Below are positions 8,426-33,650 of a stretch of DNA of 64,000 nucleotides, in pieces. The DNA comes from Sphingomonas sp. GTDB taxonomy: Bacteria; Pseudomonadota; Alphaproteobacteria; Sphingomonadales; Sphingomonadaceae. Below the pieces are notes generated by a model. That model was not told where the DNA came from and did not search any database. It was given only the letters and a program-made list of their open reading frames with translations. The stretch lies in the NCBI RefSeq assembly GCF_017745215.1, contig NZ_JAGHZV010000004.1:36931-100930 (forward strand). The letters are read 5' to 3'. Position 1 is the stretch's first letter. Each line of letters opens with the position of its first letter. The translations under genes and the position numbers were made by a program.

Positions 8426-9388
8426 TCAGGCCGCCGTTTTCAGCCACCCCATGACCTGCGCCGCCAGCCGCAGGAAAACCTCGGCACCAGGCCCGTCGCC
8501 GGCCGCGGGCGGCTCGCCGGCGTCCGAGGCCTGGCGGATCGCCATCTCGAGCGGCACGCGGCCGAGGAAGGGCAGCTCCATCGCCGCCGCCGCGCTCTCG
8601 GCGCCGCCGCGGCCGAAGGGATCGGAGACTTCGCCGCAATGCGGGCAAGCATAGCCAGCCATGTTCTCGACGACGCCGATCACCGGGACCTCGGTCCGCT
8701 CGAACAGGTCGACCGCGCGCCGCGCGTCGATCAGCGCAAGATCCTGCGGCGTCGAGACGATCACCGCGCCCGCCGGCTTGTACTTCTGGACCATCGTCAG
8801 CTGGACGTCGCCAGTGCCCGGCGGCAGGTCGAGCACGAGAACCTCGGCATCGCCCCAGTCGGCATCCACCAGCTGGCCGAGCGCGCTCCCGGCCATCGGT
8901 CCGCGCCAGGCGATCGCCTGGCCTTCCTTCACCAGCGCGCCCATCGACAGCATCGGCACGCCGAACTTCGTCTCGATCGGGATCATCTTCTCGCCCGCCG
9001 CCTTGGGCTTCACGCCTTCGACGCCGAGCAGCTTGGTCTGCGAGGGGCCGTAGATGTCGGCATCGACGAGGCCGACCTTGAGCCCGCCGCGCGCCAGCGC
9101 GATCGCAAGGTTGGCGGCGACGGTCGACTTGCCCACCCCGCCCTTGCCGCTCGCCACCGCGATGAGCCGGCGCCGGGTGCGCTCGCTGGTCTGGAGCACG
9201 CGGACATCATCCACGCCCGGCAGCGCGAGCGCCGCGGCGCGGACGTCGGCCTCGAGCGCGTCGCGCACCGCGGCGGGCATGCCGGTCACGTCGAGGACGA
9301 TGCTCGCGCGCCCTTCCGAAAAGCGGACACTCGCGCGTCCGGCGGCGACGGGGGCGATCGCCGCCTGGATGGTTTCACGGTCGGTCAT
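8426..9388 (-). CDS. mrp: Mrp/ApbC/NBP35-family Fe-S cluster carrier ATPase
   Basis: 320 aa. Deviant Walker [11 protein letters not shown] and a CPHC motif. Internal ATG of ORF 8426..10243(-). Confidence 0.9.
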
Positions 9389-13257: not shown

Positions 13258-14901
13258 ATGGGCGAGACGATCTTCGTGGGCGCGGGAAGCGGCAAGCCCG
13301 TCGAGCTGGTGCTCAGGCGCGCCAACCGCCACGGGCTGATCGCCGGCGCCACCGGCACGGGCAAGACCGTGACCGTCCAGGGGATCATCGACAGCCTCTC
13401 GGCCGCCGGCGTGCCCTGCTTCGTCGCCGACGTGAAGGGCGACCTTTCCGGCCTCGCCATGGCCGGATCGCCCGCCGCCAAGCTCCACGAGACCTTCGCC
13501 GCGCGCGCCGCCGAGATCGGCTATGCCGGCTGGGCCTATGCCGACAATCCGGTGCAGTTCTGGGATTTGTTCGGGGCACAGGGCCATCCGATCCGCACCA
13601 CCGTCAGCGAGATGGGCCCGCTGCTGCTCGCGCGGCTGATGGACCTCAACGACGTGCAGGAGGGCGTGCTCACCATCGCCTTCACCGTCGCCGACAAGGA
13701 CCGGCTGCTGCTCCTCGACCTCGACGATCTCCAGGCGATGCTCGCGCATTGCGCCGAGCGCGCCGACGAGCTCACCACCACCTATGGCAACGTCTCGAAG
13801 CAATCGGTGGGCGCGATCCAGCGCTCGCTGCTCCAGCTGCGCAGCCAGGGCGGCGACGCCTTCTTCGGCGAGCCGGCGCTGTCTATGAAGGACTTCATCG
13901 CGAGCGACGACAGGGGCCGCGGCGTGGTCAACATCCTCGCCGCCGACAGGCTGATGGCGAGCCCCAGGCTCTACGCGACCTTCCTGCTCTGGCTGCTCTC
14001 CGACCTGTTCGAGAGCCTTCCCGAGGTCGGCGACCCCGACAAGCCGGTGCTCGCCTTCTTCTTCGACGAGGCGCATCTGCTGTTCGCCGACGCACCCAAG
14101 GCGCTGCTCGAGAAGATCGAGCAGGTCGTGCGGCTGATCCGGTCGAAGGGGGTGGGCGTCTATTTCATCACCCAGAACCCGATCGACGTGCCCGACAGCG
14201 TCGCGGGGCAGCTCGGCAACCGCGTCCAGCACGCGCTGCGCGCCTTCACGCCGCGCGACCAGGCCGCGGTCAAGGCCGCCGCCCGGACCTTCCGCGCCAA
14301 TCCGGGCGTCGACGTCGAGGTGGCGATCACCGAGCTGAAGGTCGGCGAGGCGCTGGTCTCGCTGCTCCAGGACGACGGCGCGCCCGCCCCGGTCGAGCGC
14401 GTGCTGGTCAAGCCGCCGGCGTCGCGCGTCGGCCCGGTGACGGCGGACGAGCGCAAGCTGCTGATCGAGACCGACGCGGTCGGCGCGAAATACGACGCGC
14501 GGATCGATCGCGAATCGGCCGAGGAGCTGCTCCACGCCAAGGCGGCCGAGGCGAGCGCGGCGGCGGCCGAGGCGCAGGCGAAGGACGATGCCGACAAGGC
14601 CGCGTCGGCGCAGGCCAAGGAGGACGCCCGGGCTGCCAAGGATGCCGAGCGCGCGCGCATCGCGGCGGAGCGCGACGCCGACCGCCAGGCGCGGCTCGAG
14701 GCCCAGGCGCAGCGCCAAGCCGAGCGCGAGGCGGCGAACAATCCGTGGAACCGCGCAGTGACCCAGGCGACACGCTCGGCGAGCAACGCGGCGGCGCGCG
14801 AAGTGGCGAACCAGGTGTCGAAGGCTGTGTTCGGCAGCTCGCGCGGCATCGGCGCGAGCCTCGTGCGCGGGCTGCTCGGAGGGCTGTTCAAGGGGCGGTG
14901 A
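13258..14901 (+). CDS. HerA-like ATPase, DUF853 (YjgR) family
   Basis: 547 aa. Walker A GATGTGKT near the N-terminus, DEAH-like FFFDEAHLLF, and a charged low-complexity Ala/Glu/Lys tail. Confidence 0.85.
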   Translation: MGETIFVGAGSGKPVELVLRRANRHGLIAGATGTGKTVTVQGIIDSLSAAGVPCFVADVKGDLSGLAMAGSPAAKLHETFAARAAEIGYAGWAYADNPVQFWDLFGAQGHPIRTTVSEMGPLLLARLMDLNDVQEGVLTIAFTVADKDRLLLLDLDDLQAMLAHCAERADELTTTYGNVSKQSVGAIQRSLLQLRSQGGDAFFGEPALSMKDFIASDDRGRGVVNILAADRLMASPRLYATFLLWLLSDLFESLPEVGDPDKPVLAFFFDEAHLLFADAPKALLEKIEQVVRLIRSKGVGVYFITQNPIDVPDSVAGQLGNRVQHALRAFTPRDQAAVKAAARTFRANPGVDVEVAITELKVGEALVSLLQDDGAPAPVERVLVKPPASRVGPVTADERKLLIETDAVGAKYDARIDRESAEELLHAKAAEASAAAAEAQAKDDADKAASAQAKEDARAAKDAERARIAAERDADRQARLEAQAQRQAEREAANNPWNRAVTQATRSASNAAAREVANQVSKAVFGSSRGIGASLVRGLLGGLFKGR

Positions 14902-31431: not shown

Positions 31432-32265
31432 ATGGGCGGCGCGATCTGGCTTGCCTCCTATCCCAAGTCCGGGAACACTTGGGCGCGGCTCGCGCTCCTA
31501 TCGCTGTCGAACGGCGGCGCGCCCGCGAGCCTCGGCGAACTGGGCGGCTTCGCGCCGATGCTCGCGACCAATCCCAACCTCGACCGGCTGCTCCAGGTCG
31601 AGAGCGGCCATCTGACCGAGGACGAGATCGAGGCGCTCCGCCCCGACCTCAACCGCGAGCTCTTCGCCGGGCCCGAGCCGCGCCCGTGCAAGGTCCACGA
31701 CGCCTGGACGCGCGCGCCCGATGGCCGGCCGCTGTTCGACGCCGACGTGACGCACGCGGCGATCTACCTGGTGCGCGACCCGCGCGACATCGCCGTCTCC
31801 TGGTCCCGCTTCGCCGGCGTGGGGATCGACCGCGCGGTCGCGATGCTTGCCGATCCCGGTGCCGAGCTCTCGTCCAACGCCCGTGCCGCCCGCCTCCAGC
31901 TGCGCCAGCGGCTGAAGAGCTGGAGCCGCCACGTGACGAGCTGGCTCGACGAATCGGGCTTCGACCCGCTGCTGATCCGCTACGAGGACATGCTCGAGGA
32001 TCCGGCGCGCGAGATCGCACGGATGGCGGCGCACATGGGCTGGGCGGCCGAGCCCCAAGCAGTGGCCGGCGCGGTCGAGGCGACGCGCTTCGAGGAGCTC
32101 GCCGAGCAGGAGCGCCGCCACGGCTTCCGCGAGCGGATGGACCGGACCGAGCGCTTCTTCCACACCGGCCGCAGCGGCGGCTGGCGCGAGCTGCTCAGCG
32201 CCGACCAGGCCGCGCGGATCGAGCGCGACCATGGCGAGGTGATGGCGCGGCTGGGGTATCGCTAG
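31432..32265 (+). CDS. PAPS-dependent sulfotransferase (Sulfotransfer_1-like)
   Basis: 277 aa. 5'-PSB loop YPKSGNTW and 3'-PB motif YLVRDPRDIAVS. Confidence 0.85.
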   Translation: MGGAIWLASYPKSGNTWARLALLSLSNGGAPASLGELGGFAPMLATNPNLDRLLQVESGHLTEDEIEALRPDLNRELFAGPEPRPCKVHDAWTRAPDGRPLFDADVTHAAIYLVRDPRDIAVSWSRFAGVGIDRAVAMLADPGAELSSNARAARLQLRQRLKSWSRHVTSWLDESGFDPLLIRYEDMLEDPAREIARMAAHMGWAAEPQAVAGAVEATRFEELAEQERRHGFRERMDRTERFFHTGRSGGWRELLSADQAARIERDHGEVMARLGYR

Positions 32266-33650
32266 CCGGGACGCAGGCGCTTCCAGGCGTCGAGCACGGC
32301 ATCGACGGCCTCGTCCGCAGCCTCGAAGGTCGTCGCCGCCGAGGTGACCGAGACGCGCATCACCCAAGCCCCGCGCCACTGCGCCGCGCCGACGAAGGCG
32401 ATCGCATCGTCCTGGACCTGGCGCACCGTGTCGAGCGTGGCATCGTCGCTCGCGCCGAAGCGGACCATGAACTGGTTGAGATCGACCTGGCAGACCAGCG
32501 CGATCCCCGGCGCCTCGGCGAGCCGCTCGGCCATGTGGCGCGCGATCTGGCAGTGGCGTTCCACGAGTTCGGCGACCCCTTCGCGGCCCAGCCGGCGGAT
32601 CATCGCCCAGGTCGCGAAGCCCCGCGCGCGGCGCGAGAGCTCTGGGACATAGGCCGAAGGGTCGCGCTCGGCGCCTTCGGCAGGCGGCAGATAGCTCGCC
32701 GAGATCGCCATCGCGCGGCGGTGCGCCTCGGCGTCGCGGACGATCGCGAAGCCGCAGTCATAGGGCGTCTGGAGCCATTTGTGCCCGTCGGTCGCCCAGC
32801 TGTCGCAGCCTTCGATTCCCACGGTGAGGTGCGCACGCGCCGGCGCGGCCTGAGCCCAGAGCCCGAAGGCGCCGTCGACGTGCAGCCACGCGCCTTTCTC
32901 GCGCGCGATCGGGACCAGCTCGGCAAAGGGGTCGCAGGCGCCGGTGTTGATCTGGCCGGCCTGCGCGATCGCGATCACCGGGCCGGTGCAGTCGCCGAGC
33001 ACGCGCTCGAACTCGCCCGCGAGCATCCGCCCGCAATCGTCGGTCGCGACCTGGCGGACGCGCTTGGCGCCGAGCCCGAGATATTTGAGCGCCGAATAGA
33101 CGGTGGCGTGCGCATCGGCGCCGATCACCACCTCGACCGGCGGCGCGCCGAACATGCCGTCGCTCTCGACGTCCCAGCCGGCGCGGCGCAGCACCTCGCT
33201 CCGTGCGGCGGCGAGGCAGACGAAGTTCGCCACGGTCGCGCCCGTCACAAAGCCGATCGAGCTCTCGCGCGGCAGGCGCAGCAGCTCGAGCAGCCAGTCA
33301 GCCGCGACTTGTTCGACCGCGGCGGCGGCGGGCGCGGCGATGAGGTTGCCGGCGTTCTGCCCCCAGGCCGAGGCAAGCCAGTCCGCCGCGACGCCCGCGG
33401 GGTGCGAATTGCCGATCACCCAGCCGAAGAAGCGCGGGCCGGTCGAGGCGCGGATGCCGGGGGTGGCGCGCTCGACGAGCTCGTCGATGATCGCGCTCGC
33501 GTCGCCGCCCGTCTCGGGCAGCGGCCCGGCAAAGGCGGCGAGCATCGCGGCATAGTCGGCGATCGGCGTCTGCTCGGCTTCGGCGATGCGCTCGCGATAG
33601 GCGCGGGCATGAGCGGCGGCGCGGCTCAGGGCTTCGAAATCGTCGTTCAT
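32262..33650 (-). CDS. PLP-dependent group II decarboxylase family protein
   Basis: 462 aa. DGHKW PLP-lysine motif and fold-type I architecture. Its stop overlaps the sulfotransferase stop (CTAG). Confidence 0.85.
   Translation of the reverse strand: MNDDFEALSRAAAHARAYRERIAEAEQTPIADYAAMLAAFAGPLPETGGDASAIIDELVERATPGIRASTGPRFFGWVIGNSHPAGVAADWLASAWGQNAGNLIAAPAAAAVEQVAADWLLELLRLPRESSIGFVTGATVANFVCLAAARSEVLRRAGWDVESDGMFGAPPVEVVIGADAHATVYSALKYLGLGAKRVRQVATDDCGRMLAGEFERVLGDCTGPVIAIAQAGQINTGACDPFAELVPIAREKGAWLHVDGAFGLWAQAAPARAHLTVGIEGCDSWATDGHKWLQTPYDCGFAIVRDAEAHRRAMAISASYLPPAEGAERDPSAYVPELSRRARGFATWAMIRRLGREGVAELVERHCQIARHMAERLAEAPGIALVCQVDLNQFMVRFGASDDATLDTVRQVQDDAIAFVGAAQWRGAWVMRVSVTSAATTFEAADEAVDAVLDAWKRLRPG

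Follow-up and report, generated by a model that had tools for sequence, protein, structure and literature searches.

A kinase-linked sulfotransferase in a lasso-type gene cassette of Sphingomonas and its predicted action on the precursor tail

A 64,000-nucleotide stretch of DNA from a metagenome-assembled genome of Sphingomonas sp. (contig NZ_JAGHZV010000004.1, positions 36,931 to 100,930; hereafter the window) was analyzed with regard to a sulfotransferase gene, ST, and its surroundings. ST is the last of four tightly packed genes on the same strand—in order, those for a precursor peptide (A), an Asn-synthetase-like cyclase (C), an HPr-kinase-like kinase (K), and the sulfotransferase itself—which together resemble a cluster for a lasso peptide, a class of the peptides that are made by the ribosome and modified after translation (RiPPs). 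Judged from its sequence and predicted fold, ST is a bona fide SULT-fold sulfotransferase of the PAPS (3′-phosphoadenosine 5′-phosphosulfate) type, with every PAPS-binding and catalytic motif intact, and the gene order around its relatives indicates that it is an obligate partner of K inside lasso-type clusters. We favor, with moderate confidence, the interpretation that ST is a PAPS-dependent tailoring partner of K that sulfates the C-terminal tail of the same precursor.

An initial annotation of the window had identified the last open reading frame (ORF) of this operon as a PAPS-type sulfotransferase from its YPKSGNTW and YLVRDPRDIAVS signatures, and this assignment holds, on features that go far beyond chance. 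Residues 5–274 match Pfam PF00685 (Sulfotransfer_1) with an E-value of 4e-22 and 79.3 bits, against a cut-off of 22, and both signatures are conserved. The ORF opens with an ATG 11 nt past the stop codon of K, is free of internal stops in translation, and ends in a TAG (32263–32265) that overlaps the 3′ end of a convergent gene for a pyridoxal phosphate (PLP)-dependent decarboxylase; its G+C content at third codon positions (GC3) is 0.93, as in the neighboring host genes. No NCBIfam model was found for ST.

Four motifs can be located in the protein, and all are invariant or nearly invariant in an alignment of 25 homologues. YPKSGNTW (residues 10–17) is the 5′-phosphosulfate-binding loop and includes the catalytic Lys; none of the 25 homologues departs from it, and conservation among 75 kinase-linked STs is at least 97%. 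The 3′-phosphate-binding motif YLVRDPRDIAVS spans residues 112–123, and within it R115-D-P-R-D-I-A-V-S123 aligns with RNPKDVAVS of SULT1A3, with R115, D119 and S123 100% conserved. The catalytic His lies in K-V-H89-D, of which K87-V-H89 is likewise 100% conserved, and FFHTGRSGGWRELL (residues 242–255) is a motif of the RKGxxGxW type, whose F242-F-H-T-G246-R-S-G-G-W251-R aligns with FMRKGMAGDWK of SULT1A3.

Comparison of the ST family profile with the PDB gave SULT1A3/1A1 at E-values of about 3e-21 and Teg12, Teg14 and StaL at 3e-20 to 1e-17. An AlphaFold2 model of ST (mean predicted local distance difference test score, pLDDT, 90.4) has as its top Foldseek matches Teg12 (E-value 2.6e-11, TM-score 0.67), SULT1A1 and StaL; the top 50 are all of sulfotransferase fold, and the fold matches also include retinol dehydratase and LGS1. 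With Teg12, Teg14, StaL and SULT1A1—whose substrates are phenols of non-ribosomal peptides or small molecules—ST shares the PKSG(N/T)TW, RDP(R/K)D..VS and (R/K)xGxxGxW motifs and the catalytic His, whereas the identity is 22–23%, the TM-score is about 0.65, and the acceptor-binding parts are not conserved. Two of these nearest solved relatives, Teg12 and StaL, have peptide scaffolds as their substrates, which supports a peptide as the substrate of ST. PF13469, which we take to be the TPST-type family, scored 19.6 bits on ST, under its cut-off of 27, and TPST is absent from the 49 PDB sequence matches and the 50 best fold matches; a TPST-like mechanism was rejected on these grounds.

When one genome of each species was scanned, relatives of ST were found at 80 loci (given L numbers here), and the set used for synteny comprises 82 distinct loci, the window included. 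The relatives are spread over about 12 phyla: they occur in Alpha-, Beta- and Gammaproteobacteria, Desulfobacterota, Bacteroidota, Chlorobiota and Chloroflexota, and further in Cyanobacteria, Acidobacteriota, Actinomycetota, Verrucomicrobiota, Gemmatimonadota, Bacillota and Spirochaetota. A K homologue is present at 75 of the 82 loci; at 70 it is the gene directly upstream of ST and has the same orientation, the two often overlapping by 4 nt, and at two the order is reversed, ST preceding K. The seven loci without K (L050, L063, L069, L072, L074, L075 and L077) have no lasso genes either and carry the most distant ST paralogues, at 36–39% identity; relatives at 40% identity or above are all K-linked, as are most of those below 40%, in many phyla. 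When neighboring ORFs were clustered at the 81 mapped loci, the counts were 79 for ST, 67 for K, 61 for C, 54 for the gene of a PqqD-like RRE protein (B1), 40 for that of a transglutaminase-like leader peptidase (B2), 31 for an NTP_transf_5-type nucleotidyltransferase (NT), 25 for an ABC exporter (D), and 16 for GNAT; no lyase or decarboxylase is conserved around ST.

Synteny of this extent, with K directly upstream at 70 of 82 loci from many phyla, argues that the adjacency is not fortuitous. It agrees with the initial annotation, which had placed ST in a RiPP operon and had looked to a lack of conserved synteny as the mark of a chance neighbor; fortuitous adjacency was rejected accordingly. 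That ST should instead sulfate an unrelated small molecule or glycan is a reading to which the seven distant paralogues, all outside any lasso context, lend something, but every relative of at least 40% identity is K-linked across many phyla and the overlaps between the cassette genes suggest translational coupling, and we hold it to be extremely improbable. Two residues of ST follow the same division: Arg47 and Asp90 (codons at 31570–31572 and 31699–31701 of the window) are about 95% conserved in kinase-linked STs and missing from the seven non-kinase paralogues.

At some loci there are two paralogues of the kinase, placed one after the other or on either side of ST (L043:8204–10008, L066:8166–9999, L079:3660–5446 and L060:9096–11761). 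In a neighbor-joining tree of the kinases, the ST-adjacent K is not cleanly split from the second K copies.

The candidate substrates were compared next to these enzymes. A homologue search with the precursor of the window matched the precursor itself and nothing else, and precursors were then gathered from the loci by leader motif. This motif, (K/R)xW..P.[LVI], is common to small ORFs beside K–ST clusters, and their cores are rich in Gly, Ser, Thr and Asp. In many of the precursors a T-x cleavage site precedes a stretch of eight residues, the last of them Asp, a register seen in the window, L001, L002, L010, L011, L015, L083 and L089. The leader in the window carries W-R-T-P-K-L and has Thr at position −2 (V-T-H), and cleavage after V-T-H is predicted to leave the core ADFSPGTDAYDGTSTSYGPS. 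In this core Asp8 is likely the ring acceptor (the isopeptide partner), Tyr10 stands within D-A-Y-D-G, as the initial annotation had pointed out, Tyr17 stands within S-Y-G-P-S, and Ser20 is the C-terminus. The precursor thereby has the features typical of lasso precursors, Thr as the penultimate leader residue and Asp or Glu at position 7–9 of the core.

Among 56 core peptides found beside K–ST pairs, 47 (84%) have a C-terminal Ser, and all 56 have Ser or Thr among the last six residues. In 12 a Tyr has Asp or Glu no more than two residues away, and 29 (52%) have no Tyr of any kind; Tyr can therefore not serve as acceptor throughout the family. In the precursor L019f (GVVPNAFVEGFCDCLVS), one of six in tandem, the sole hydroxyl is that of the terminal Ser. 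From these sequences, the only constant acceptor candidates of the family would be hydroxyl groups in the C-terminal tail, foremost the terminal Ser or the phosphate on it. Locus L019, from an Anaerolineales metagenome-assembled genome, has 6–7 tandem precursor genes (8842–9072 and 13534–14804) and one K–ST pair; several of its cores are Cys-rich, and all end in Ser.

The lasso kinases PadeK, ThcoK and SyanK phosphorylate the C-terminal Ser of the linear precursor, not of the folded lasso, and can do so several times (PMC8498205, PMC9266682). In the interpretation that we favor, K would phosphorylate the C-terminal Ser of the linear precursor in this way, and ST, as an active O-sulfotransferase of the cytosolic-SULT fold, would also act on the linear precursor and, with PAPS, sulfate a hydroxyl in its C-terminal tail, which in the window is residues 13–20 (T-S-T-S-Y-G-P-S). 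The end of the mature peptide would then be doubly anionic, bearing phosphate and sulfate. Across the family, the one acceptor present in every case would be a Ser or Thr among the six final residues, in most precursors the terminal Ser itself, with Tyr as an optional one.

Several observations weigh against this interpretation. The 56 cores were hand-curated from ORFs with the leader motif, and nine precursor candidates (L013, L024, L028, L033, L043, L054, L055, L070 and L080) do not end in Ser; their last residues are N, P, T, L, F or I, which is at odds with the reported specificity of the kinases for a C-terminal Ser. The ST of the window has Asn at position 47, which is Arg in 95% of kinase-linked STs; its closest relative, P0002, also lacks Arg47, and this may be an acceptor-binding difference of the Sphingomonas subclade. 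Tyr10 and Tyr17 are both conserved in the two closest relatives of the window, L083 and L089, and since SULT1A1, Teg12 and StaL are phenol sulfotransferases, Tyr would be favored over Ser or Thr where it is present. Hidden Markov models (HMMs) for B1, B2, NT and D, built from neighbors in the related loci (54 B1 and 40 B2 sequences), match nothing in the whole 64-kb window, the best E-values being 2 for B1 and 0.5 for B2, and production of a mature lasso peptide at this locus is uncertain. Finally, the sequence does not single out an acceptor residue, and the product is a prediction from the genes.

The role of Tyr is best considered among the sphingomonad relatives, in which the A–C–K–ST cassette is intact in at least seven genomes or metagenome contigs, with 53–64% ST identity and differing flanks; its persistence across diverged sphingomonads in different genomic contexts argues that it is under selection. 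The predicted cores are listed in Table 1.

Table 1. Predicted core peptides of the window and of sphingomonad relatives.
Locus	Core
Window	ADFSPGTDAYDGTSTSYGPS
L083	HFFSAGIDNYEVDNPVNYGAS
L089	HLFSSGIDRYERTAPHYGQS
L087	TAYPAPGDDGIDQFVTIDPHYANYGLS
L091	GDYVPQGNDGGDSSHASGFSS
L001	QDLNAPGDDGQTVYPGIDLGNYS
L002	NTAARPGDDGLDRFGGYYVQTGPS
L004	GTYQAAGSDGVDPTHPTTGVS

The initial annotation had proposed sulfation of Tyr10 on the rule, known from TPST and RaxST, that sulfated Tyr residues lie in acidic contexts. The rule does not transfer, because ST resembles SULT1A1, Teg12 and StaL and not TPST or RaxST, so that it has no basis in homology here, and such a Tyr is present in only the 12 cores counted above. 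Sulfotyrosine at Tyr10, or in a looser form at Tyr10 or Tyr17, nevertheless finds local support: D8-x-Y10-(D/E)11 is kept in the window and its two closest relatives only, L083 (HFFSAGIDNYEVD...) and L089 (HLFSSGIDRYER...), and a C-terminal Y-G-x-S is kept in the window, L083, L087 and L089. Phenols are moreover what the nearest solved homologues SULT1A1, Teg12 and StaL sulfate, and Tyr is the target of the sulfotransferases of sulfonated lanthipeptides (PMC11143521). Elsewhere the pattern dissolves. More than half of the cores have no Tyr, and Tyr at position 10 is missing already in the sphingomonad relatives L001, L002, L004 and L091. Conserved aromatic residues after the ring or near the tail would be expected in any case as steric plugs of a lasso, and Asp8, as the likely isopeptide partner, would not be a free acidic flank in the mature peptide. 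We thus consider sulfotyrosine rather unlikely and the prediction of Tyr10 weak. Tyr17 or Tyr10 may be the acceptor within the Sphingomonas subclade, and if the acceptor is a Tyr, Tyr17 would be at least as good a candidate as Tyr10.

A different possibility, which we regard as distinctly unlikely, is that ST acts on the product of K, either making a phosphosulfate on the C-terminal phospho-Ser or placing sulfate on the terminal Ser to serve as a leaving group. In the second version the β-hydroxyl of the terminal Ser would be sulfated and elimination or decarboxylation would follow, as with CurM ST, retinol dehydratase and LGS1, all of which use sulfate as a leaving group; the last two are among the fold matches of ST. 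No ST in a lasso context lacks K immediately upstream, and the terminal Ser of L019f, being the only hydroxyl of that co-clustered precursor, fits as well. Shared leader recognition or shared regulation would account equally for so tight a pairing, though, and no lyase or decarboxylase is conserved beside ST. To our knowledge, formation of a phosphosulfate on a peptide is not known for any PAPS-dependent enzyme, and the case is purely inferential. As to chemistry at the phosphate itself, the kinases are reported to accept a phosphate oxygen (polyphosphorylation), and in pseudomycoidin a nucleotidyltransferase decorates the phosphate made by the kinase (PMC8498205, PMC9266682). If true, action on the K product would be an end-group chemistry of peptides with no RiPP precedent, and in Sphingomonas the A–C–K–ST cassette would bring it about without a dedicated B2.

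Under the favored interpretation, sulfation of the precursor tail in partnership with K, a leader must still be removed. B2 is absent from nine sphingomonad locus records (L001–L004 and L083–L087; HMM, E-value 0.01), and it was not found within 28–32 kb of the cassette in the window nor within 8–10 kb in the sphingomonad minimal cassettes examined. B1 is present in the relatives L001, L087, L090 and L091, an exporter also occurs in some sphingomonad cassettes, and the full gene set is found in the sphingomonads Erythrobacter (L053) and Parasphingorhabdus (L064). Either a leader peptidase encoded at some other genomic site does the work, or the leader comes off by a different route. Since no B2 is nearby, we file the locus as lasso-type and not as a proven lasso cluster.

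The empty B1, B2, NT and D searches, the lack of B2 in the nine records, and the housekeeping genes on either side could also mean that the cassette is a remnant or incomplete, with no mature product and with ST idle or serving some other substrate. We think this very unlikely. All four ORFs are intact, with catalytic motifs kept and host-like GC3; the cassette has been kept in different contexts at the identities given above, which points to selection; and the recognition features of the leader, W..P.L and Thr(−2), are retained in the window and its sphingomonad relatives. The missing B genes, for their part, could do their work from another genomic site.

In 2014 Letzel et al. reported that lasso clusters can contain genes for a sulfotransferase and an HPr kinase (PMC4289311), and putative sulfotransferase genes are mentioned in some phosphorylated-lasso clusters (PMC8498205, PMC9266682); according to a 2021 review, a similar observation was made by Zhu et al. 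2016, and the review describes the function as unknown (PMC8498205). The association of the two genes is thus already known, and to that extent the novelty claimed in the initial annotation was overstated. Its other statement, that it knew of no characterized sulfated lasso peptide, is matched by our full-text literature searches, in which none was found, and sulfation, if it were demonstrated, would be a chemistry new to the class. None of the reviews consulted, up to 2026, counts sulfation among lasso modifications, one on interlocked peptides from 2026 included (PMC13352647), and sulfated RiPPs are otherwise RaxX, some methanobactins, conopeptides, and sulfonated lanthipeptides (PMC11143521).

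The phosphorylated-lasso clusters of paeninodin (PadeK), ThcoK and Sphingobium yanoikuyae (SyanK) likewise combine K with an Asn-synthetase-like cyclase, and their precursors too end in Ser, whereas the window has ST right after K, lacks B1, B2 and the exporter, and has a product predicted from its genes. Orthology of its K with SyanK was not established, as no S. yanoikuyae protein is among the 120 kinase matches listed. A second tailoring enzyme is present in the pseudomycoidin cluster too, where it builds on the phospho-Ser of the kinase and the C-terminal Ser is phosphoglycosylated; NT accompanies K–ST at 31 loci, whereas the window has no NT and its second enzyme is a sulfotransferase. 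RaxST, acting on RaxX, and eukaryotic TPST provide PAPS-dependent sulfation of ribosomal peptides, but belong to a different sulfotransferase family from ST. SslST and SscST (PMC11143521) are RiPP-cluster sulfotransferases that tailor a peptide, and this class too was found by co-occurrence mining; unlike ST they are TPST-like in structure, they are leader-independent and act on Tyr of cyclized peptides, and they belong to another RiPP class with no kinase partner.

The locus is a compact, four-gene version of a cluster type noted since about 2014, and the comparison provides handles on its chemistry: ST as the obligate partner of K, Tyr as dispensable family-wide, and the C-terminal Ser/Thr tail as the common denominator. 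If a product is confirmed, lasso or RiPP chemistry would gain sulfation, perhaps in coupling with phosphorylation, and a small peptide sulfotransferase would become available for engineering. If the product were plain sulfotyrosine, it would be an incremental addition beside RaxX and the sulfonated lanthipeptides.

The genes of the cassette, together with the convergent decarboxylase gene, are listed in Table 2. The precursor gene has a counterpart that is called as a gene in L085. The cyclase matches Pfam Asn_synthase (E-value 5e-19) and GATase_7 (E-value 1e-12), and its best NCBIfam model is the lasso cyclase NF033535, at 166 bits, below the cut-off of 525. The ATG start of K overlaps the stop of C by 8 nt. 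K matches PF07475 with an E-value of 3e-9 and TIGR04352 with 1e-14, the latter below the cut-off of that model, and carries a Walker A sequence, GASGVGKST, which fits the GxxGxGKS P-loop of the HPrK C-terminal domain, and LLGDD with its Asp-Asp motif, both conserved across an alignment of 82 K sequences; its homologues are annotated as PF27840 (ScmC) and PF07475. The publicly annotated K is 221 aa long, and the ORF whose start overlaps the cyclase stop is 310 aa, a length like that of its homologues.

Table 2. Genes of the cassette and the convergent flanking gene, with positions in the window.
Feature	Coordinates	Strand	Evidence
Precursor peptide A, 57 aa	28411..28584	+	ORF, GGGGGG ribosome-binding site upstream, leader motif
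Asn-synthetase-like macrolactam (lasso-type) cyclase C, 627 aa	28612..30495	+	Pfam, NCBIfam
HPr-kinase-like peptide kinase K, 310 aa	30488..31420	+	PF07475, TIGR04352
ST, SULT-fold PAPS-type sulfotransferase, 277 aa	31432..32265	+	Pfam, alignment, profile, fold and GC3 evidence
PLP-dependent decarboxylase	32262..33650	−	

The genes flanking the cassette have housekeeping functions and opposite orientation. Those to one side encode a thiolase, a CoA-transferase, a short-chain dehydrogenase/reductase (SDR) and an acyl-CoA dehydrogenase, and to the other side are the PLP-decarboxylase gene, a second SDR gene, pheT, pheS and rplT. The PLP-decarboxylase gene converges on ST, with a 4-nt overlap at the ST stop codon, and is probably unrelated, because it is not conserved beside ST elsewhere. 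A promoter and terminator scan gave no promoters and one terminator-like site, which lies inside gene C and is at chance level.

The surroundings of the cassette differ in several of the Sphingomonas relatives, where three tandem phage-tail-collar (PF07484) genes, a GNAT gene and a DUF6916 gene stand directly upstream of A–C–K–ST (L002:2553–4705, L087:5331–7624 and L091:2420–4624); the window has none of these genes at that place. The regions L087:1–1363 and L004:152–331 hold a further precursor-like ORF, whose leader has the same W..P.[IL] motif and whose last residue is Ser (for example ...ARDAWVKPEILSFEPVSAAQGSGSAIGEGTNNVS). In L087 it adjoins genes for another sulfotransferase family (PF09037/PF13469), PqqD and a penicillin amidase, and the ORF layout in L004 matches; it may belong to another sulfation-linked RiPP system a few kilobases from the K–ST cassette.

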